The notes below the pieces were generated by a model. That model saw nothing but the letters and a program-made list of their open reading frames with translations. It was not told the origin of the DNA and did no database searches. Shown here in pieces: positions 3,046 to 56,024 of a stretch of DNA of 56,024 nt (positions within the stretch are counted from its first letter, which is position 1; every line of letters begins with the position of its first letter). The position numbers and the translations under genes were made by a program. The DNA comes from a virus: the IMG/VR virus record IMGVR_UViG_3300005336_000008. One strand, 5' to 3'.

Positions 3046-6000
3046 TGCCTCCCGTTAACGACAATTTAGCCAACGCCACTGTTCTTTCTGGACCGTCTGG
3101 CTCAATAGGGGACACCCTGGTTGGCGCAACCATTGAAAACGGTCCATATACTATGGACGGTTTTACGGAATTAGCTTATTGGGGTGTTCCAACGGTTGCG
3201 GATGGTCGTTCGGTTTGGTACAAATATACTGCTGCATCTGATGTTAATTTAGTTTTAGATATAGTTGGAACAGGATTTCATCCATATGTTGAAACTTGGG
3301 TTGAGGATTCCCCTGGTGTGCTTACATTTGTAGATTGGTTCGGCGACGGAACATCTGATCCTTCTGCATCTAATCCCATTCCAATTCCTAACGGTGTAAC
3401 ATTATACATAGTTATAGACAATTGGGAATTTGATACAAGCGAAGGCTCATTTACTCTTGATTGGGAAGTATTTGCTGCTCCACCGAATGACAACATTGCA
3501 AATGCAATATTGATTTCTTCTAGTGGCGATATTATTACAGCCTCAACGGTTGGTGCAACAACAGAAGTCGGTGAAGATACATATGGTAACAACGCAATCT
3601 GGTATAAATGGTTTCCTCCGTCATCTGGCGTTACAGCCACATTAACCAAGCTTGCTGAAAGTCAAGATCATGCGGTTAGGATATACCAATCAAATGTAGG
3701 GGATAATGCAGATTATGGCGATTTGGGCGTGCAAGTTGCGCAAGTATCAGATCCCCCTATAGATACTGCTCAATTTACAACACAAAGCATTTGGTATTAC
3801 ATTATTGTAGTTCCCGACAGCACGCCTGGAACTGTTTCATTTTCTCTCACATTAGAAAATGAAACAGATACTCATGATGATGGAACAGTTTATTTGCCAA
3901 CTCAACCTAGAGGTTGGTCTGTTGGTAATAATGTAGGAACGACTACAGAAGTTGGTGAACCAACACATGCCGGTGTAGGCACTCATCATAGTGCTTGGTA
4001 TTATTTCGAACCAACTCATGTTGGGACCTACACATTTACCATTGAGCGGGTATGGGGAGATTTAGAAAATCCTGTTCTAGCCGCCTATACAAATCCATTT
4101 GACGTTTTTGGCGCCATGACTGAATTGGATTCTAATGCAACAACACCGCTTCCATCTATCACATTTACTATAAATGATGCTGATCGTTTTGATGATATCG
4201 CGATTGTTGTTGCTGGACGCGCAGAAGGACAGGAAGGCGGATACGTAATTAGCTGGAATCTTGATTCTGTTGAGCCAAACGATAATTTTGAAAACGCCAT
4301 TGAAATCTCTGGAACAGGGTCTTTAACAGATAGAGACTTAGATGGAGCAATGCTCGAAATTGGTGATTACTTCCTGTTCCAGTATTCAGGTCAATTTGGA
4401 AATCACTGGTATAAATTTATACCTGATGATGATGGTTCAATAGAGCTAACTATTGATGTAGGAACTTTGCTATCACAAAGAGTGTGGGTCTGGAAAGGTA
4501 CAGTTAGAGAAGATTTGGTAGCTATTGCCTATCAACTTTATAATGCTGGTCCCACTTCTAAACTTTTAAAGCTCCCTGTAGAAGCAGGACAAACATATTA
4601 TATTGAAGTTTATGGTACTCCACAATATACATATGATATATCTTGGGAAATAAATACTGACGCCCCTGTTGATTTTCAACCCACAAGTGTTGGTGATTTT
4701 GACACAAATAGTGGTGGGTCCGATTCTGCTGGAGAATTGGTTTTCGGGCCAACTGATTATGTCCAGCACACAATTTTGCCTAGTGGTCACTCTAGAGCAA
4801 CAGATCACATTTATGTAGGATTTAACATTCGATATGGCAATTCGAACAGAATGTTGGCTGGAAGCGGGGATCAGAAAATTAATGTGCTTGAGATTTATTC
4901 CGTAAGCAATACATTAATTGGTGGAGTTAAAATCTATGAAGATTTAGGTAATCTTGAAATAACAGGTCATCTTGAATGTCTTGGTGGTGGCACAAGCGTT
5001 TATAAATTATCAGAAGACAATATTTATTGTGAATTCGTTATTAATAATGTCCCTTCTGATGATTATACAACATCTGCTAAAGATATGTCCATGATTATAC
5101 AGGGGACCGAACTTACAGCGGACAATACTTCGTCTCCTTCTACTCAACTTATTGGTTATATCAAGCTTGGGTATATTAATGAACCAGCAACCGCGCCAAA
5201 TCTTGATTTGAGATTTTCCGATATTGTAGTTAAGACAATACATGATGATGAAGGATTGCCTGACCCACCATTTTACGCCGACCCTAATGATCGACTTTTT
5301 TTCGCAACTGGATTCAATGAAAGACAGACAACAGCTTCACATATGGGTCGGGGATTCAGGAATACTACAATGGCAACTGCATATACTATTATCGATGATC
5401 CTACAGGGGGCGGTAAGGGAGCAGTTGTAGATGCTTCTTCCGCAGCCAAGACAGTTGCCGTACCTGGATTATCATCGCTTTTTGGCGGCATAGGAAAATA
5501 TAGAGTAACTGCTGGATGGTGGGTTTACTTGACAACCATTGGTAGTGGCGGAATACTTGCAACTGTAACAGGGACTCAAAAAGGTACTCTTAACGCAACA
5601 TTTTTAGCCTTAAAGTGTCAATCTGACGGAACATTATATATAGAGACTGATGGTGGTGTAAACGGGGTCCTTTCAAGGGCTTATAGTCATAGAGTTATGG
5701 AGACTGGCTCTTGGCATCATATCGAAATTGAGGTTACAAGAAATATCCCCCGAACAGAAGGTAGATGGTGGATTGATGGAGAAGAACAAGAGCCGATTAT
5801 AGGAGATAGAGGAACAGGAAGAGCTTGGAGTTTTATGGCGGGCTTCAGTATTTCTCTTACTTCTTCTCTGAGAGGATACATTACCGACATTACCAGCACT
5901 CTCAAGGAACATGTGGGTCCAATTAAGTCAAGTATTGTTTCTCCTGATGCATCAGGCACTCACGATCTTGGAACGATCACGCATTACACAGAAGGTGATG

Positions 6001-7160
6001 GAACAGAGACATTTATTACAAGTATCGATGATGGAACAACATATACATCGTTGGGTGCAACCGATCCGGTTCACGGATTTATTGACGAATGGCCTAATAA
6101 TGATAGTACATCTACAAGTGACATGATTGGTGATGTCAACCGCAGCAGCTATATTGAATATACATATGCTGATGTGGGCGGCGGAGAAGATGTTTTGTTT
6201 ATCAATGCATTTACTGCTGTTCGTCCAATGCATATTATGACTGTTGACTTTACTGGCTTGCACACTTATCCCGACTTAATACCCCACAGCAGGGATCAAT
6301 CAGATACAGGGGCAATGATTTCTACTTCTAAGTTTTTGTTGGGAAGCAGAGAAGTCAATCAACTTAATGAATATTCAAGTGGTTTTGACACAAACTACAG
6401 AGTCTCACAAATTCCGTTAGGTCATGCTCCCGATGGAGAATTGTGGACTCCTTCTAAAGTAAACAGCATGATTGCACGATGGGGGTATCAACACTGGTTT
6501 ACCGCTAGCCCGCAGCAAGGCAATGCGTTGGAAGCCCAAATGATGGAAATTATTATGGCGGAAACCGTATCCGTCAGCTTGGACGAATATGTACCTCCTG
6601 CTCCTGAAATTAATTTGGTCGCACAGCAATTTGATAATCAAACTCCACCATATGCATTTAACAGTTGTCTTGCATGGTCCAAGACTGATCTAAGAACAGA
6701 CCCAAATATGTCTCGCAAAATTTGGCTATTCCCAACGTATGTAAAGGAGTGGGAATCATTTAGATTATTCTGGCGAGTAACGCCAGCCTATGACGCAGAT
6801 CAACCTGGATTTGATGGAGTCTATAATAATAATCAATTATCTAAATGGCTTTTGACTAGTGGAGAATTCTACGGAGATATTGCAAACAATCTAAATGTCT
6901 CTGAGGAACGTTGGGGCAATAATTATTATATTACCAATGAATTTACAGATTGGGAAATGCGAGTTATGTCCCCATCCCTGATCTATAATCCTTGTGCTCT
7001 TGGCGCCCTCGTAGACGAAGATGGAAACATTACTTTCGAAGCATTTATTCGTGATAGCTACGGGATCGATTCAGATATTACTACATTAGTGGTAAACATC
7101 ACTAGAGGCGATTGTTGTGGTGGCGCTTTGATGTTCAACAAAATTGTAGCACTTAGATGA
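3045..7160 (+). CDS. Large tail fibre / host-recognition protein with four N-terminal PPC-like (pre-peptidase C-terminal-like) repeats
   Basis: 1371 aa. Repeats of about 130 aa begin near 3045, 3474, 3870 and 4269. They carry (P)NDN(L/I/F)xNA...G.T.E.GE...WYK(Y/W/F) motifs. It is the last and largest gene of the tail block. Confidence 0.8.
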   Translation: MPPVNDNLANATVLSGPSGSIGDTLVGATIENGPYTMDGFTELAYWGVPTVADGRSVWYKYTAASDVNLVLDIVGTGFHPYVETWVEDSPGVLTFVDWFGDGTSDPSASNPIPIPNGVTLYIVIDNWEFDTSEGSFTLDWEVFAAPPNDNIANAILISSSGDIITASTVGATTEVGEDTYGNNAIWYKWFPPSSGVTATLTKLAESQDHAVRIYQSNVGDNADYGDLGVQVAQVSDPPIDTAQFTTQSIWYYIIVVPDSTPGTVSFSLTLENETDTHDDGTVYLPTQPRGWSVGNNVGTTTEVGEPTHAGVGTHHSAWYYFEPTHVGTYTFTIERVWGDLENPVLAAYTNPFDVFGAMTELDSNATTPLPSITFTINDADRFDDIAIVVAGRAEGQEGGYVISWNLDSVEPNDNFENAIEISGTGSLTDRDLDGAMLEIGDYFLFQYSGQFGNHWYKFIPDDDGSIELTIDVGTLLSQRVWVWKGTVREDLVAIAYQLYNAGPTSKLLKLPVEAGQTYYIEVYGTPQYTYDISWEINTDAPVDFQPTSVGDFDTNSGGSDSAGELVFGPTDYVQHTILPSGHSRATDHIYVGFNIRYGNSNRMLAGSGDQKINVLEIYSVSNTLIGGVKIYEDLGNLEITGHLECLGGGTSVYKLSEDNIYCEFVINNVPSDDYTTSAKDMSMIIQGTELTADNTSSPSTQLIGYIKLGYINEPATAPNLDLRFSDIVVKTIHDDEGLPDPPFYADPNDRLFFATGFNERQTTASHMGRGFRNTTMATAYTIIDDPTGGGKGAVVDASSAAKTVAVPGLSSLFGGIGKYRVTAGWWVYLTTIGSGGILATVTGTQKGTLNATFLALKCQSDGTLYIETDGGVNGVLSRAYSHRVMETGSWHHIEIEVTRNIPRTEGRWWIDGEEQEPIIGDRGTGRAWSFMAGFSISLTSSLRGYITDITSTLKEHVGPIKSSIVSPDASGTHDLGTITHYTEGDGTETFITSIDDGTTYTSLGATDPVHGFIDEWPNNDSTSTSDMIGDVNRSSYIEYTYADVGGGEDVLFINAFTAVRPMHIMTVDFTGLHTYPDLIPHSRDQSDTGAMISTSKFLLGSREVNQLNEYSSGFDTNYRVSQIPLGHAPDGELWTPSKVNSMIARWGYQHWFTASPQQGNALEAQMMEIIMAETVSVSLDEYVPPAPEINLVAQQFDNQTPPYAFNSCLAWSKTDLRTDPNMSRKIWLFPTYVKEWESFRLFWRVTPAYDADQPGFDGVYNNNQLSKWLLTSGEFYGDIANNLNVSEERWGNNYYITNEFTDWEMRVMSPSLIYNPCALGALVDEDGNITFEAFIRDSYGIDSDITTLVVNITRGDCCGGALMFNKIVALR

Positions 7161-7390
7161 ATGTTGATCTACAACAGATTTTAGAAACTGTAAGAGCGGC
7201 CGGAATAACAGGCTTACTTGTGTTTGCTCTTATTGGAGGTTTCAGGAAATGGTGGGTATTTGGCTGGCAATATAAAGATGTTTGTAAAGAAAAAGATGAA
7301 TGGAAACAATTAGCCCTCGGAGGCACGCAGTTAGCGGAGCGTTCCGTCAGTGTTGCAAAGGAAGTTGCGGAGGTGAAATCTCCATTATGA
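7157..7390 (+). CDS. Small single-pass membrane protein, probably associated with the lysis cassette
   Basis: 77 aa with one hydrophobic helix (AAGITGLLVFALIGGF). ATGA overlap with the fibre gene stop. Confidence 0.6.
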   Translation: MNVDLQQILETVRAAGITGLLVFALIGGFRKWWVFGWQYKDVCKEKDEWKQLALGGTQLAERSVSVAKEVAEVKSPL

Positions 7391-9444: not shown

Positions 9445-9528
9445 TGCCGACGGAGGGACTCGAACCCTCAATCCTTTACAGGCGTCAGATTTTAAGTCTG
9501 ATGTGTATACCAATTCCACCACGTCGGC
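9445..9528 (-). tRNA. tRNA-Leu, anticodon UAA, type II with a long variable arm. No CCA is encoded.
   Basis: I folded the cloverleaf by hand. The acceptor stem is GCCGACG/CGTCGGC. The anticodon stem is TCAGA/TCTGA with loop CTTAAAA. The T arm is GAGGG-TTCGAGT-CCCTC. The D loop contains GG. Length is 84 nt. Confidence 0.9.
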
Positions 9529-28072: not shown

Positions 28073-28468
28073 TTATGACCACGGACCTGTGCTTGTTCCG
28101 TAATTGCTCAGTTCTGCAAAAACTTGAACTGAGTACGCTGGATCAGATTTGCATCTATTGTAGTCTACCCACGTATGATACCGTGGAATCATTTGTGCGA
28201 CACATTGTGCTTGTTCATTTGGATCAGAGTAAGTGGTATTAACAGCACCAGGGCAAAAACCACTTTCTCGATTAACGATACCGTATGCCCAATAGTAAGT
28301 ACCATGAGGGCCAAAAGTTCTTTCCAGTAATTCCTTTACGATTACTTTTACTGTTTCTGAGCAATCGCCATATCTTACGGAGTACGTGCCGCCGTTGGCG
28401 ATTGCCTTTTTTCCTTCTTCAGCTAATTGCTCATTCGACCACAAATGGATAAGTTTGATATCATCCAT
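28073..28468 (-). CDS. Possible lytic transglycosylase (SLT)-like protein. The frame stays open a further 89 codons upstream to 28735, and that extension encodes a signal peptide.
   Basis: It contains NRESGF..GAVN...QCVAQMIP, which looks like an ES...Q-M-I pattern. For the in-frame extension see the finding at 28469..28740. Confidence 0.45.
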   Translation of the reverse strand: MDDIKLIHLWSNEQLAEEGKKAIANGGTYSVRYGDCSETVKVIVKELLERTFGPHGTYYWAYGIVNRESGFCPGAVNTTYSDPNEQAQCVAQMIPRYHTWVDYNRCKSDPAYSVQVFAELSNYGTSTGPWS

Positions 28469-28835
28469 TTTTCTTAGAACTCTATCTGACCACTTAAATA
28501 GCTGGGAGTGTTCTCTAATTGCGATTCTACCAGCTTTTGATTTTGCTAACTCAGGATGATTCTTGAAAAACCTTTCAACATCTAGTGCATGATCTTTCCT
28601 AGATTCAAACTCCTGATATTTCTCCTGATAGCTCTTAAAGTGCTTAGGTGTATAATGGGCCTGGGCCTGTCCTGCGATTACCCCTGAAATGAGTATTGCA
28701 GTTAGTATGGCTTTTGGCTTTCTGACGACTTCCTCCTAGATTGCTTTTCAGGATATTGCGGCGGTAACAGTCCAACCGCATAAACCGTTACCGCCGCATT
28801 TGGAGAATTCTGCTTGCGGTGAGAATTCCCCATTT

Positions 28836-28861
28836 GCCTAAATCGGGGGATCGATTTAGGC
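28836..28861. promoter_or_regulatory. 10-bp-arm palindrome (GCCTAAATCG-N6-CGATTTAGGC) at the predicted transcription start of the 28869..28897 promoter
   Basis: Read directly from the sequence. It lies immediately downstream of the -10 element on the minus strand. Confidence 0.4.
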
Positions 28862-28868
28862 ACCAACG

Positions 28869-28897
28869 ACGGTAGCACAAACCACCGAGTTTGTCAA
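28869..28897 (-). promoter_or_regulatory. Sigma70-like promoter, TTGACA-N17-TACCGT, with a TGc extended -10
   Basis: The -35 is at 28897..28892 and the -10 is at 28874..28869. Confidence 0.55.
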
Positions 28898-28927
28898 GTC
28901 ACAAAACATGAAAAGTTCAAATCTTGA

Positions 28928-29312: not shown

Positions 29313-29563
29313 ATTCTATCCTTATGAATAAGATAGAGATTTGTGTTATGTGCCTTAACGATGATTTTGTCTGCATGCTCTCGACCCCACGAATTATTCT
29401 TTAATGCGAAATTGATTCCATCTGCACGATGACCTAAACCTGCATATTCAATTCCTGGCGCATCGGAATTCATTAATGCATCAATCATAGTCCTAAGCTT
29501 AGGCTCACGCTTCATACTTATAGGTCTATCACTGATTGACGGGGAAAGGGCTTCTTGTTCCAC
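29309..29563 (-). CDS. Hypothetical protein
   Basis: 84-aa ORF. The start is uncertain, with an alternative ATG at 29515. Confidence 0.5.
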   Translation of the reverse strand: MEQEALSPSISDRPISMKREPKLRTMIDALMNSDAPGIEYAGLGHRADGINFALKNNSWGREHADKIIVKAHNTNLYLIHKDRI

Positions 29564-29870
29564 CGATTTTTTCTCCTGTTACCACGCTTTCAAACCAGTA
29601 CACACATGGTATTCTTTCAACCTGTGAAGGATCAGTTGGAAAATCTTTACACTGATTTGGACGATCTTCATAAATACTACAACGCTTCTCTTCTGTGAGT
29701 TTTGGGCAGGGATGAATGATTGGTAACCAGGTGATTCCATCTTTTGGTAATCCTCTCGCTTCAATCCAATCAGGATCATTTTGTGAAAAGTCAATTTGGA
29801 TAGGATGCGTTAAAGCTTCGCAGCAATAACCGCATCCGTCACATTCTCCATGCCTTACCCAATCAGACAT
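29529..29870 (-). CDS. YkgJ-family (CxxCxxCC) zinc/iron-chelating cysteine-cluster protein
   Basis: It has the CDGCGYCCE motif near the N-terminus and further conserved Cys residues. 113 aa. Confidence 0.65.
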   Translation of the reverse strand: MSDWVRHGECDGCGYCCEALTHPIQIDFSQNDPDWIEARGLPKDGITWLPIIHPCPKLTEEKRCSIYEDRPNQCKDFPTDPSQVERIPCVYWFESVVTGEKIGGTRSPFPVNQ

Positions 29871-30613
29871 AATTCAATAAGGGGTACAAGTATTCACTTT
29901 CGTAGTCGTAGGCTGACCCTACGTTTTACTTGTGTGTATACTGTACCCCTTATTCAATTATGAGGTTTGTAGTGTGCGCGGCCTACGTTAAATACAATGA
30001 GTACATATAATATTATCATACCCATTTAGCTACGAGTTTGCCGTAAGTAGCTACTGTCGCACTACTTATTTTCTCACGATTTGCCACTTCGTGACACACA
30101 CTACATTTTTGAGCTACGTTTACCTACATTCTATTACTTGCGTGCTTTCATAGAATGTAACCACCCTTCCCAACCTGCAATTTCCACTATCTCACACGAT
30201 AGTCCTCAACGTAGCTCAATGAGATAGTCGAACCTAGCTTTGCCCCCGGAGGAAAATTCAGGAGATACTAGGTTATCTCTTGATAATCTCCTAGACAAAG
30301 ATCGACTATCTCATTCAACTACGTAATTAACTTACAGAGTGAGCGGTATCGTGTTTAACTCTGTAAGCCCCGAGGAATCTTCTGTTCCTCGGCTTAGTAG
30401 TGACGCATTTCCTGCTTAGACTTAATAGAAAAGAAATCCCGAGCAAAAGCTCACTCATCAAAGGATTTTTCTGAGCTTTTCTATCAGTATCTTACAGGTT
30501 GCTCCGCTCTCTACTAAATCAGTAGACTTTCATCTACTATTAAGTGCTAGTGGACGGGAGGAACACTAGCACTTAATAGTAGATACGGTCGTTAGACCGT
30601 ATCTACTAATTAC
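29871..30613 (-). other. 743-bp ORF-free, hairpin-dense non-coding locus. It could be a structured RNA or a replication/regulatory region.
   Basis: There is no ORF of 60 aa or more on either strand, and I found no start codon preceded by an SD. It holds at least 9 stem-loops, including a perfect 20-bp stem at 30533..30552/30564..30583. Confidence 0.6.
30212..30322 (-). ncRNA. Copy 1 of a conserved-base long hairpin element
   Basis: The sequence is TAGCTC-AATGAGAtagtcga...tcgactaTCTCATT-CAACTAC. The 14-bp stem is 30218..30231/30302..30315. Confidence 0.4.
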
Positions 30614-30991
30614 TTACTTGCTCTGAGCCGCGCGAGCCTCAGCAACCTTCTTCGTGTTAATAACGAAAAGCTTCTCGGAAAGGACAACGCGCTCCTCACC
30701 CTTCTTACCATTCGTCTCCTGCTTAACACGAACCTGCACATCAGTACCACCAGGAATAACAAGCTGACCAGTTTCGTCATTAACCTTCTTGCGAGCGTTA
30801 TCAAGAGCGGTCTTAATAACCTTCGCAGGCTTACCAGCGAAACTACCAGCAGTTAGATCAACCTCACGACCAAGCTCTCCACTTGCAAGGAAATCCGAAA
30901 TGTACTCACCTGCGTTAGTCTTGCTGCGAGTCGATCCAAGAATTCCAGTAATGTCATCAAGTGAAAGGCCAGTATCAGAAGCAGTTGCCAT
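30614..30991 (-). CDS. Abundant-looking early protein of unknown family (paralog A, 125 aa)
   Basis: It is about 70% identical to 35992..36363 by my manual alignment. Its codon usage is GC3-rich compared with its neighbours. Confidence 0.75.
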   Translation of the reverse strand: MATASDTGLSLDDITGILGSTRSKTNAGEYISDFLASGELGREVDLTAGSFAGKPAKVIKTALDNARKKVNDETGQLVIPGGTDVQVRVKQETNGKKGEERVVLSEKLFVINTKKVAEARAAQSK

Positions 30992-35348: not shown

Positions 35349-35446
35349 TAGCTCAATGAGACAATAAGTGGTTCCACTACTGACGCAGTTCGGGCTTTTA
35401 GTCAACCCGGCGATTTCGGGCTTAACTTATTGTCTCATTCAACTAC
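35349..35446 (-). ncRNA. Copy 2 of the conserved-base long hairpin element
   Basis: The sequence is TAGCTC-AATGAGAcaataagt...acttattgTCTCATT-CAACTAC. The 15-bp stem is 35355..35369/35425..35439. Confidence 0.4.
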
Positions 35447-35909: not shown

Positions 35910-35938
35910 AGTGTAGCATACTTCGAAATGTTTGTCAA
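35910..35938 (-). promoter_or_regulatory. Sigma70-like promoter, TTGACA-N17-TACACT, with a TGc extended -10
   Basis: The -35 is at 35938..35933 and the -10 is at 35915..35910. The leader ATCGAACGGGAGG is shared with the promoter at 37349..37377. Confidence 0.6.
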
Positions 35939-35991: not shown

Positions 35992-36363
35992 TTACTTGCT
36001 TCCGTTCTGTGACGCACGGGCCTCAGCGACCAACTTAGTGTTGATGATGAAAAGCCGCTCAGAAACAACGACCTTCTTATCACCCTTAAGCCCGTTAGTC
36101 TCCTGCTTGATTCGAACCTGAATGTCGGTTCCACCCGGAATCGCAAGCGTTCCAGTCTCATCGGAAACCTTCTTGCGCGCAGAATCAAGAGCCATCTTAA
36201 CCTGCTTTGCAGACTTTCCGACGAACGAACCAGCACCCAAATCGACCTCCCGACCCATCTCACCCGAAGCGAGAAAATCCTTCACGTAGTCGGAAGAATT
36301 AAGCTTCGAACGAGTAGAACCAAGAACCTCATCGATCATGTCAAGTGAGAGCGTATCAGCCAT
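35992..36363 (-). CDS. Abundant-looking early protein of unknown family (paralog B, 123 aa)
   Basis: It is about 70% identical to 30614..30991. It has a strong RBS (AAAGGAGGTGA), its own promoter and a long structured leader. Confidence 0.75.
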   Translation of the reverse strand: MADTLSLDMIDEVLGSTRSKLNSSDYVKDFLASGEMGREVDLGAGSFVGKSAKQVKMALDSARKKVSDETGTLAIPGGTDIQVRIKQETNGLKGDKKVVVSERLFIINTKLVAEARASQNGSK

Positions 36364-37083: not shown

Positions 37084-37317
37084 CTAGTTAAGCCACCACA
37101 TTTCGGCGGCGATCTTAGTGTCAGTAACAGGCTTACTGTTATTCAAGTGCTCTGCACACCTACGCTTAGTCTTGCCTCCCCCATTCTCGACCATCAGTAC
37201 GGGATTGGTACATTCGGCAACGTGGCACTTCTCAGTCTTGACGTGAATACAAAGCTGAGTATTAGCGGACGGACCGAATCGGCGCTTATTCATCAGACTA
37301 GACCGCGTGCGTGCCAT
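37084..37317 (-). CDS. Small basic Cys/His-containing protein
   Basis: 77-aa ORF with GGGAGGAAAATAA upstream of the ATG. It has its own promoter at 37349..37377. Confidence 0.6.
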   Translation of the reverse strand: MARTRSSLMNKRRFGPSANTQLCIHVKTEKCHVAECTNPVLMVENGGGKTKRRCAEHLNNSKPVTDTKIAAEMWWLN

Positions 37318-37348
37318 TTATTTTCCTCCCGTTCGATGTAGTAGATAG

Positions 37349-37377
37349 ATTGTAGCTTATGTGTGGGGTAGTGTCAA
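37349..37377 (-). promoter_or_regulatory. Sigma70-like promoter, TTGACA-N17-TACAAT
   Basis: The -35 is at 37377..37372 and the -10 is at 37354..37349. Confidence 0.6.
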
Positions 37378-37382
37378 GTAGA

Positions 37383-37415
37383 GGGAAGGGCCAATTTTGT
37401 GTTTTGGCCCTTCCC
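37383..37415 (-). terminator. 12-bp hairpin (GGGAAGGGCCAA / TTGGCCCTTCCC) after the first early gene
   Basis: Read directly from the sequence, with a 9-nt loop. It lies between the stop at 37426 and the next promoter. Confidence 0.5.
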
Positions 37416-37425
37416 CAACTTCGCA

Positions 37426-37695
37426 CTAGCCGTTATTGTAATCGTGGTCGAGTGTGATCGATTGAATCAGGCTACGCTTCTGCGCATTCTGGCTTGCGCG
37501 AGTGATACGCTTCGCGTGCTCATTCGGGGTACGTGTGCGGACGAATGGGATGCGAGTACCGTCGGGGAAGATCGAGACACATTCGCCGGATTTCGTGCCG
37601 GAGCCCTTCCAACGTTCTGACACTCGCCTGGTCGTAGAAGTAATGGCACCGAATGCCTTAGCATCGGCTGCATTCTGCATTCTTGCGTCTCGCAT
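37426..37695 (-). CDS. First early protein of the minus arm (89 aa, basic, GC-rich)
   Basis: GGGAGGCATC lies upstream of the ATG at 37695. Overlapping alternative frames look spurious. Confidence 0.6.
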   Translation of the reverse strand: MRDARMQNAADAKAFGAITSTTRRVSERWKGSGTKSGECVSIFPDGTRIPFVRTRTPNEHAKRITRASQNAQKRSLIQSITLDHDYNNG

Positions 37696-55800: not shown

Positions 55801-56024
55801 TCTTACAGGATCAACAGATTCAAAAATCCAACTTTGAGCAGCTAACCAAAGATCTTACTTTCTTGCAGAAGCGTGGTGTTGATCCAAAAACAATTCAAAA
55901 CATTTTAGGTCAGGGAAGTGCTGCATTGCCATTCTTAGAAGGAATCCGACAAGGTACTCCAAAACAACAAAATGAGTTTATCAAGAATCTTAAAGGCAGA
56001 AATGCTGCACTTCTTGATGCTTTG
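52848..56024 (+). CDS. Tape measure protein, N-terminal 1059 codons. It continues at 1..399 through the circular junction.
   Basis: The frame is open from the ATG at 52848 to the window end, so there is no stop and the ORF is absent from the track. The sequence is a helical MAFRGYELNLMLRVQDRASSRL... followed by hydrophobic GAALIAGGVGVAASAAAAG segments. Confidence 0.85.
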   Translation, partial: MAFRGYELNLMLRVQDRASSRLRRLSHDIGGVNRAAQLQRSAGRLATQQTRNQLDMTKTLAQREALLAQHGTERLGTQSRLLRLKAQELTLTDRINRMSPGQMVSARGQASLKRLQAVQKDIIRTEELRRIAIRNNNTALADQLLLEQQIKREIEQQAIAQRAAEKAALAQRRARTLTHVGSAALIAGGVGVAASAAAAGSFANFNRLAVGAATQMRGVNEGFEQTVKIAGVVESSLLDLTRQFPAAADEMAQSIYDISSGMTFQIDRTSRLTETQQRYNQSLRILKLANQVAVAGNTDLNTATDVLITTFNNFDPAVQRPIKLLNELFAIVRFGKGTFAEFSPQIGRLAASARAAGQTLGEAGAGLAFLSQRMPLSQATTALTRIFQVIGRPEFTAGFEQLFKVSPFKEGTRQLRDLSDLMFIIEKQGPKLWKGFGKGSVDLQNVIKNITAAGQDLIKGTTGHTGLVSTEFSRKAITDFILGGKEYRKTVQDVIGTQGEFFRSLQAFRNQPGVQWQIAINQFKAFGIVIGQTVLPAILRFFDAINHLLDEFRDLSPRTQKMIGQFAAYGSIFLFVGGAITSVLGGLAILTVSLRTLGTTVGTEQGTGVLGRVSGLRVALSGLAAIGAISIILKTAWSGNATAMDFIQGAMLGAAAGSIFGPEGAIIGGVTVPVIMKWLSDRSKPKEELDYPHQLYEQYKSQGRFNFRWFWEAGPKNFSGFMKEWKADVARGKQIIARGQKDLNNFTFKIPGTNKSVFQNALVVPATTALNQVSNKNKNTTNSMLKNWQGLATQLTGLDLFSGVNQQMANAAVNVQTNLARALALGNTAQQRAAINAQIESDKRQVARLEKIPAAKRTANQAKILIQLYNDITQQRGRLEAMDNAAAAAQTKAANATKKHNAELERHKKAIERANNAYKTAERRVDALKLKFKQLKEQSLDQLRSAFGDIFGGPFMQGPIGQAFTGIASTLAGFGKTFPIPAQFILQDQQIQKSNFEQLTKDLTFLQKRGVDPKTIQNILGQGSAALPFLEGIRQGTPKQQNEFIKNLKGRNAALLDAL
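55905..56024. repeat. Terminal 120-bp direct repeat, identical to 1..120
   Basis: Exact match by direct comparison. Confidence 0.95.

Follow-up and report, generated by a model that had tools for sequence, protein, structure and literature searches.

A 743-bp gene-free gap in the early arm of an uncultivated soil phage as a probable row of separately folding RNA modules

The stretch described here, 29871-30613, lies in a viral DNA of 56,024 nucleotides (nt) from IMG/VR (record IMGVR_UViG_3300005336_000008), the whole of which is referred to as the window. It is the gap between two minus-strand genes, gene A upstream and a CxxCxxCC gene downstream, and in transcript order, which is that of the minus strand, it holds a series of structured modules that we number M1, M2, M3, M8, M6 and M5. 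The modules and the two flanking genes are as follows.

30614-30991, minus strand: gene A, encoding 125 amino acids (aa), with its stop codon 5 nt before M1
30608-30520, minus strand: M1, three abutting hairpins (H1, H2 and H3) directly after the stop codon of gene A
30577-30608, minus strand: H1 of M1, UAGUAGAUACGGUC-UAAC-GACCGUAUCUACUA, with perfect 14-nt arms whose outer 8 bp are the conserved X word
30540-30576, minus strand: H2 of M1, a 13-bp stem of different sequence in each relative
30520-30539, minus strand: H3 of M1, a short hairpin repeating the X word (UAGUAGA-loop-UCUACUG)
30325-30525, minus strand: M2, an RNA of ~200 nt with P1, a long irregular hairpin P2/P3, a variable P4, and P5
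30331-30367, minus strand: P5 of M2, a hairpin with the invariant 18-nt loop UAAACACGAUACCGCUCA
30504-30509 with 30341-30346, minus strand: proposed pseudoknot of M2, GAGCGG at the P1/P2 junction with CCGCUC in the P5 loop
30209-30324, minus strand: M3, a foot hairpin ACGUAGUUGAAUGA...UCAUUGAGCUACGU around a structured cargo of ~70 nt
30100-30228, minus strand: M8, between M3 and M6, with small hairpins at 30186-30203 and 30125-30159
29966-30108, minus strand: M6, a four-way junction of ~140 nt with a closing stem P1, hairpins a and b, and a long arm c
29868-29962, minus strand: M5, a foot hairpin whose interior, GUAUACACACAAG...GUGAAUAC, is conserved
29529-29870, minus strand: the CxxCxxCC gene (PF03692), 113 aa, with its start codon inside the M5 stem

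The density of structure noted in the original prediction is confirmed and lies far beyond chance. The minus strand of the stretch folds at -286 kcal/mol, compared with -189.6 ± 8.3 kcal/mol for dinucleotide shuffles (z = -11.6), and the plus strand at -253 kcal/mol (z = -10.9). When the whole window is scanned in sliding segments of 200 nt, the largest outlier cluster falls in the stretch, where values of -70 to -81 kcal/mol compare with a genome mean of -46 ± 9 kcal/mol. Every stem that had been listed was recovered by an independent repeat search, which returned the following arms.

29868-29888/29942-29962: 21 nt, 95%, base of M5
30209-30231/30302-30324: 23 nt, 91%, foot of M3
30331-30340/30358-30367: 10 nt, P5 of M2
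30445-30453/30472-30480: 9 nt
30532-30552/30564-30584: 21 nt, 100%, alternative fold of M1
30577-30590/30595-30608: 14 nt, 100%, H1 of M1

The last two stems had been said to have 4 nt in common, and the actual overlap is 8 nt. The iterated words TCTACTA/TAGTAGA are present at 30510, 30533, 30577 and 30602, whereas for CTACGTT the copies at 29919 and 30114 stand and the third is at 29983 rather than 29973. The stretch is also as poor in coding sequence as had been claimed, with no open reading frame (ORF) of 60 aa or more; the largest are 48 aa (30081-30227, plus strand) and 44 aa (30327-30461, minus strand). No start codon preceded by a Shine-Dalgarno (SD) sequence occurs in it, and the downstream CxxCxxCC gene is itself without one.

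The loci of about 15 distinct lineages carrying homologues of protein A were fetched (loci of relatives bear L0xx labels), and the alignment of relatives, which had been proposed as a check for stem covariation, yields compensatory changes in M1, M2, M5 and M6. Within M1, H1 is kept in nine relatives, where its inner stem carries compensatory changes and its loops include GAAA and UUCG. The arms of H2 are only 35% identical between relatives, and all ten aligned pairs show changes on both sides, while the loop of H3 is closed by a U·G pair in seven of nine relatives. Over the nine relatives, 96% of the M1 cells are paired and 18 of 31 pairs have a both-side change, compared with 3-8 in slid alignments; none of 500 shuffles reaches the observed value. 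The 8-nt X word (UAGUAGAU/AUCUACUA), which is common to H1 and H3, is nearly invariant in these nine relatives, and in divergent lineages it appears by eye to be altered in concert across its copies (AUAGAU in L021, UAAUGG in L030/L031 and AUUAUG(A/G)AG in L035). Because X recurs, an alternative M1 fold is possible in which X1', H2 and X2 form a single 21-bp stem (30532-30552/30564-30584). The two folds are near-isoenergetic, and RNAfold chooses the alternative for the isolated M1 of the window. We also considered a 'domino' in which X-word pairing continues into P1 of M2; it fits the window and L033 and does not fit L032, L024 or L021, so it is not general. We note that three contigs identical to the window (L003, L004 and L005) end within M1 or 1 nt past the stop codon of gene A, as might be expected of assembly graphs breaking at the start of a hypervariable, hairpin-rich island, with which these ends are consistent.

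M2 is supported by an alignment (A2) of five lineages, in which 25 of the 47 pairs found by RNAalifold are compensatory. When the pseudoknot is counted as well, 94.5% of cells are paired and 25 of 44 pairs have a change on both sides, against 4-8 in slid alignments and with no shuffle of 500 reaching this value. The proposed pseudoknot covaries once, as GAGCAG/CUGCUC in L021, a single double change. A covariance model of M2 (R1) has one match in the window, on the minus strand, and finds the module once per genome and on the gene strand only in the window, L021, L024/L025, L032 and L033. Anchors taken from M2 had zero matches in IMG/VR and GTDB genomes.

The third well-supported fold, M6, is known in three copies only, those of the window, of L032 (6905-7046) and of L041 (537-674). 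These give 37 pairs with 96.3% of cells paired and a both-side change in 15 pairs, compared with 0-4 in slid alignments and 0 of 500 shuffles. Hairpin a bears the conserved loop A(G/A)UGGCAAA, and the strands of the junction are conserved. In L032, M6 resides between tRNA-Gln (6836-6909) and tRNA-Glu (7048-7119) on the same strand, with spacers of 5-10 nt, whereas L041 is an unrelated 77-kb IMG/VR phage contig in which M6 is again flanked by foot hairpins. The M6 anchor pattern finds L041 alone in IMG/VR, and its three matches in GTDB, about the number expected by chance, are rejected by the M6 model. A tRNA identity for M6 was considered and rejected: it is a four-way junction, but of ~140 nt and with no T-loop consensus. 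The neighbouring M8 has no homologue in the relatives; it can be closed by UUGAGCUACGUU/AACGUAGCUCAA, a pairing that competes with the 3' foot of M3.

M3 and M5 belong to a recurrent family of foot hairpins with the consensus (ACGUAG)UUGAAUGA...UCAUUGAG(CUACGU), which contains a G-G mismatch and has a TTGAAT...ATTGA base. Above the foot, the stem is variable but complementary and encloses a cargo of 20-250 nt. In the 197 kb made up of the window and the loci of relatives, 23 foot hairpins lie on the gene strand versus 2 on the other strand; the 21 distinct ones all fall between genes of the early arm, and the G-G mismatch is kept in 19 of them. A further copy in the window shows that the family extends beyond the 29871-30613 stretch.

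35352-35442, minus strand: a third member of the family, GGGUAGUUGAAUGAGACAAUAA...UUAUUGUCUCAUUGAGCUAAUC, immediately preceding the SD and GUG of another early gene

Foot hairpins elsewhere likewise directly precede start codons. M3 has a homologue in L032 (6002-6126) that is 87% identical, with 42 pairs of which 2 are compensatory, while in M5, aligned from the window, L024 and L032, 10 of 34 pairs are compensatory. The latter include the pairing of CAU in the basal stem with the AUG (29870-29868) of the CxxCxxCC gene, and the same CAU/CGU-AUG pairing is present in the sequences of L021, L024 and L034. The SD sequence of this gene is absent in every relative as well as in the window.

The pair tables of M1, M2 and M6 contain 52 G·U cells and 6 A·C cells. 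This asymmetry points to structures formed by RNA of the gene strand, since neither a cruciform, nor a duplex protein site, nor an RNA from the opposite strand would give it. In 11 of 12 relatives, moreover, folding is stronger for the gene strand than for the complement, at a G+T fraction near 0.5. The GNRA and UUCG loops on H1 of relatives and the single orientation of the foot hairpins relative to transcription point to RNA as well. We therefore regard selection on gene-strand RNA structures as very probable.

In nearly all lineages fetched, no gene is called for 350-1000 nt after the A gene, and the A gene with its RNA island recurs even in the distant L040 (~70% nt identity in the helicase gene). 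The exception is L035/L036, where the gap is only 117 nt and holds M1 alone. The sequence of the gap is poorly conserved: in L039, protein A is 98% identical and the flanking genes are 72-80% identical, yet the gap aligns to that of the window over the first ~55 nt only, keeping M1 and carrying unrelated modules in the rest. Compared with the window order M1-M2-M3-M8-M6-M5, L024 has M1-(foot hairpin)-M2-M5, and L032 has M1-M2-(hairpin)-M5-(other)-M3, with M6 relocated to its tRNA array. L039, L006 and L021 have other modules in common, located before the CxxCxxCC gene or right after tRNA-Lys, as for the module that directly follows tRNA-Lys in L021. Genes for tRNAs (Ile, Lys, Gln and Glu) occur in or just after the gap of relatives, whereas ARAGORN and the Rfam tRNA model RF00005 find none within 29871-30613 of the window.

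The original prediction had offered two readings, the first being one large processed RNA transcribed with the paralog gene A. It was right as to kind, in that the stems covary, the G·U pairs lie on the gene strand and no internal promoter-like site is present on that strand. It does not hold for a single RNA, since the reordering and replacement of modules between relatives exclude one large molecule in favour of a mosaic of at least five independent modules. GOLLD, ROOL and HEARO are highly structured non-coding RNAs of phage DNA that sometimes stand beside tRNA genes. The cmscan search suggested for them returned none of the three, nor any other Rfam family, and the gap contains several modules of ~100-200 nt rather than one fold of 400-800 nt. 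Against Rfam 15, the whole window at gathering threshold gives only tRNA-Leu at 9445-9528, the region at E <= 10 gives only sub-threshold miRNA-hairpin noise, and about 20 relatives at gathering and permissive thresholds give only tRNAs.

Rather, the modules behave like RNA genes in a processed polycistronic transcript. The nearest precedent is the T4 tRNA region, with its RNAC and RNAD. There, the two non-tRNA structured RNAs come from the same transcripts as the tRNAs and have roles still unknown (PMC3014915, PMC9697503), and they are classed as late RNAs (PMC9697503). The likeness lies in the position of M6 inside the tRNA array of L032 and in the tRNAs held by the islands of relatives. The differences are that no sequence or Rfam relation exists, that the island of the window has lost all tRNAs and has no neighbouring tRNA, and that several module types, rather than two, are shuffled here between relatives in an early operon.

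Other structured sequences were seen in the gaps of relatives. In the more distant L030 (about 5990-6110) and L031 (about 5590-5720), the same gap contains a different conserved structured module, GGCAGAGUCCAACAGGCG.AGC...GGACUGUUGGA.UGCU.ACG ... GAGCGGUCGGUAUCC, with compensatory differences by eye and no Rfam match. L039 (about 4980-5150) and L033 (about 3740-3870) each have a 6-7-bp acceptor-like stem and a T-arm-like GGUUC(A/G)AUUCC hairpin, with an insert of >60 nt in place of the D and anticodon arms; ARAGORN and Rfam call no tRNA there, and these stretches may be tRNA-like RNAs or disrupted tRNAs. Finally, a boundary word, (A)CUCGUAGCU(A/C)AAU, is present at 30036, 30120 and 30209-30222 and in L032 at 7201-7275. 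It matches the 5' acceptor/D-arm part of the tRNA-Lys of relatives (GACUCGUAGCUCAAUUGG) over 11-17 nt, a resemblance which suggests, as a lead only, that boundary and foot words may be derived from tRNA genes.

The transcription signals of the window bear on how the gap is read. All genes from about 9.5 to 36.4 kb lie on the minus strand, no sigma-70-like site is found on that strand within 29871-30613, and the only exact TTGACAAAC -35-like boxes on it are at 35938, 28897 and 24334, all in intergenic gaps. The stretch is thus probably transcribed with gene A from an upstream early promoter. The search for intrinsic terminators on the minus strand gave one weak match inside M2 (30453-30440, 5 pairs), no more than in shuffles, and H1, H3 and the foot hairpins are without U tracts.

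Taken together, we consider it probable (roughly 0.6) that the 743-bp stretch consists of five or more conserved RNA modules, lined up and folding independently of one another, which are carried in an early polycistronic transcript with gene A and the CxxCxxCC gene and subject to RNase III-type processing. In the mechanism that we propose, the stretch would most likely be read from the minus strand within this transcript, and M1 and the foot hairpins would be cleaved by an endonuclease of double-stranded RNA, with host RNase III, or an enzyme like it, as the most likely candidate. Such cutting would leave a hairpin-protected 3' end on the gene A mRNA, set free M2, M6 and the cargo of the hairpins, which would become small stable RNAs and may work in trans as do the tRNAs that relatives have in this island, and unmask the AUG of the SD-less CxxCxxCC gene. 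The parts of this scheme are less secure than the whole row of modules: for processing by RNase III at these hairpins we put the odds somewhat short of even, and our suggestion that M2 and M6, at the least, are stable RNAs with a function in trans instead of cis elements is only tentative. A generic benefit is likely here as well, since a long untranslated gap is protected from Rho and RNase E when it is densely structured.

Cutting by RNase III is proposed because the stems at the module boundaries, which are long and almost perfect, resemble the signals of T7. In the 7-kb early precursor of that phage, E. coli RNase III cuts five hairpin signals, at which mismatches or loops at the target lead to single-strand cuts and the resulting 3' hairpins stabilise the mRNA (PMC3867540). 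As with the T7 signals R0.3-R1.3, the hairpins are recurrent and intercistronic in an early polycistronic transcript (made in T7 by the host polymerase), with stems of about two helical turns and a conserved irregularity, and they stand at the 3' end of the upstream gene or before the next start (PMC3867540). Intercistronic stems of the T7 type, of ~20 bp or more, are found in the gap, with arms of 23 nt in M3 and 21 nt in M5, and with either 14, 13 and 7 bp or one 21-bp stem in M1. In contrast to T7, the irregularity here, which may or may not mark a cleavage site, is a single G-G mismatch in UUGAA/UUGAA and not an asymmetric internal loop, the hairpins enclose a variable cargo of 20-250 nt, and cleavage is only predicted.

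Several points weigh against this interpretation. Template switching on DNA can keep long perfect inverted repeats complementary, so that compensatory changes by themselves are no proof of RNA; the G·U asymmetry is the main counter-argument. The alignments are small, with 3-9 related sequences, and the shuffle control ignores phylogeny. The X and foot words could be protein-binding sites instead of nuclease determinants. The presence and specificity of a host RNase III are presumed only, and the ends, stability and cleavage of the RNAs are all inferred. Searches of the phage genome for a trans target returned nothing beyond their own sites for the invariant M2 loop and for the H2 arms, and M8, which has no comparative support, appears to be the least certain part of the row.

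The alternative that survives best, although we think it unlikely, is a spacer that acts in cis only, in which 3'UTR and 5'UTR (untranslated region) hairpins would protect against Rho and RNases and gate the translation of the CxxCxxCC gene, without any trans function. M1 indeed adjoins the gene A stop codon, the AUG of the SD-less gene that follows lies buried in M5, and the sites of foot hairpins right before start codons elsewhere, the lack of an independent promoter or terminator and the failure to find a trans target all agree with it. T4 provides a parallel in the genes e, soc, 49 and I-TevI, where inhibitory hairpins sequester the translation start in an RNA helix (PMC3014915), as M5 does by pairing CAU with AUG; the hairpin here differs in its size (~95 nt), its conserved interior, its membership of a repeated family and the absence of an SD. 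A cis spacer, however, needs no invariant loops or junctions and no pseudoknot, yet M2 and M6 have such features. Furthermore, two copies of M6, that in the tRNA array of L032 and that of an unrelated phage, lie apart from the A and CxxCxxCC genes, and modules are gained, lost and reordered as genes are.

More speculative is an extension of the modular reading in which the gap would be an exchangeable cassette island. The feet and closing words (UUGAAUGA..., CGUAGCUCAAU) would then serve both as processing marks and as recombination joints, and the cargo would be trans-acting RNAs for host takeover or anti-defence. M2, with its pseudoknot and invariant loop, and M6 are the candidate cargo, and they might be decoys for RNA- or tRNA-targeting immunity. 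If this were true, the island would be to RNA what the hypervariable anti-defence islands of phages are to protein.

Improbable, in our view, is that the gap is selfish or decaying DNA, consisting of palindromes like miniature inverted-repeat transposable elements (MITEs) or repetitive extragenic palindromic (REP) sequences, or of remnants of a tRNA island, kept by template switching and of no function to the phage. The foot words resemble terminal inverted repeats with at least 21 copies in the family, module turnover is rapid, and a word ACUCGUAGCU(A/C)AAU matches, as read by eye, the 5' part of the tRNA-Lys of these phages. Yet the foot alone is common to the copies, their interiors differing while remaining paired; the G·U over A·C excess (52 versus 6) is not predicted by template switching; the orientation is strand-specific (23 versus 2); and unpaired loops do not vary between lineages that have only ~70-80% identity in their flanking genes. 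A MITE/REP-type repeat, of which the whole element should occur in both orientations, was rejected on the same grounds. The Correia/NEMIS elements of Neisseria are MITE-like repeats with conserved inverted ends that form a long hairpin in transcripts and are processed in mRNA. They differ from the foot hairpins, which have only ~9-14 nt of foot in common, interiors that are unrelated yet complementary, and an orientation described as always with transcription (the counts being 23 and 2).

The second of the two readings first offered, a DNA element such as an origin with iterons and a DNA-unwinding element, fares worse still, and we consider it very improbable that the stretch is a replication origin or a region bound by proteins, in which the X and CGTAGCTCAAT words would be iterons and the AT-rich patch an unwinding site, or a set of single-stranded DNA priming hairpins. 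Words of 7-12 nt are repeated in both orientations, H3 alone resembles an 18-bp operator, the phage has its own primase and polymerase, and the clustering of short repeats around an AT-rich patch recalls iteron origins such as lambda ori. The repeats, however, are inverted, irregularly and variably spaced arms of covarying hairpins. The AT-rich patch exists, but it is the loop of arm c of M6 and is not AT-rich in L032 or L041. In L039, all but M1 is replaced, which shows the locus to be exchangeable; the cumulative GC skew is featureless, with no inflection at the stretch; the stems overlap a start codon; and both the G·U asymmetry and the GNRA/UUCG loops indicate RNA. Hidden coding, by small proteins or a gene with unusual decoding, can be set aside as a negligible prospect: although ORFs of 44-48 aa are present, no protein-coding frame is conserved in the relatives, the tblastn similarity spans several frames and both strands for the same segments (longest stop-free frame <=58 codons), and substitutions follow base-pairing, not codons.

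The modular reading places the gap in a known kind, that of phage small-RNA/tRNA islands and hairpin-punctuated early transcripts; its novelty lies in the folds themselves, in the family of foot hairpins and in the cassette-like exchange. Phage annotation goes protein by protein, so that such gaps stay blank, and this one holds at least three well-supported new RNA folds (M1, M2 and M6) along with the recurrent hairpin family. If the modules are processed stable RNAs, they would extend the T4 RNAC/RNAD observation to a modular, fast-evolving class of phage RNA genes, with the ~200-nt pseudoknotted M2 and the ~140-nt four-way junction of M6 as concrete candidates for tests of function. Even if only the cis-acting functions are real, the gap would be a clear case, outside the model phages, of a hairpin-punctuated early transcript with a stem-gated SD-less gene.

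The window is a circularly closed assembly of ~55.9 kb, with an exact 120-nt direct overlap between 1-120 and 55905-56024. It is the genome of a tailed phage encoding a family-A polymerase, primase, exonuclease, Sak4, SNF2 helicase, terminase, portal and protease, and its source is an uncultivated soil phage of a lineage without a close cultured relative. The best match of the DNA polymerase among known phages is 27% identical, and neither blastn of the locus nor tblastn of protein A finds a match among 50,697 GenBank phages.

Protein A has 56 homologues in metagenomic phages (from metagenome assemblies). It matches no family in Pfam, PHROG, PADLOC or PDB sequences and profiles, and its AlphaFold model (predicted local distance difference test score, pLDDT, of 74) has no PDB fold match with E < 0.3, so that the protein gives no lead to an RNA-binding partner. 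Gene A (30614-30991) and a gene B (35992-36363) are paralogous early genes on the minus strand, of 123-125 aa and 72% aa identity, for which no fold or family match was found. Both gene types occur across the phage family; M1 follows the A type only, and a simple hairpin plus a promoter-like TTGACAAAC come after the B type.

Two further regions of the window fold strongly. The first, 28469-28927 on the minus strand, is a second ORF-poor gap, which contains the TTGACAAAC box at 28897 and a long GC-rich hairpin, GCGGCGGUAACGG...CUGUUACCGCCGC, at about 28805-28755; the same arrangement is seen in L032 and L020. The frame of the adjoining ORF 28073-28468 is open upstream to about 28727, and this upstream extension reads as a signal-peptide-like N-terminus (KPKAILTAILISGVIAGQAQA) that comes after an AGGAGG but is without an ATG, GTG or TTG start. 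The second, 37290-37560 on the plus strand, is the divergent region between the early and late arms, which folds at -101 kcal/mol over 271 nt and holds a GC-rich terminator-like hairpin, GGGAAGGGCCAA...UUGGCCCUUCCC, together with another TAGTAGAT word at 37339.

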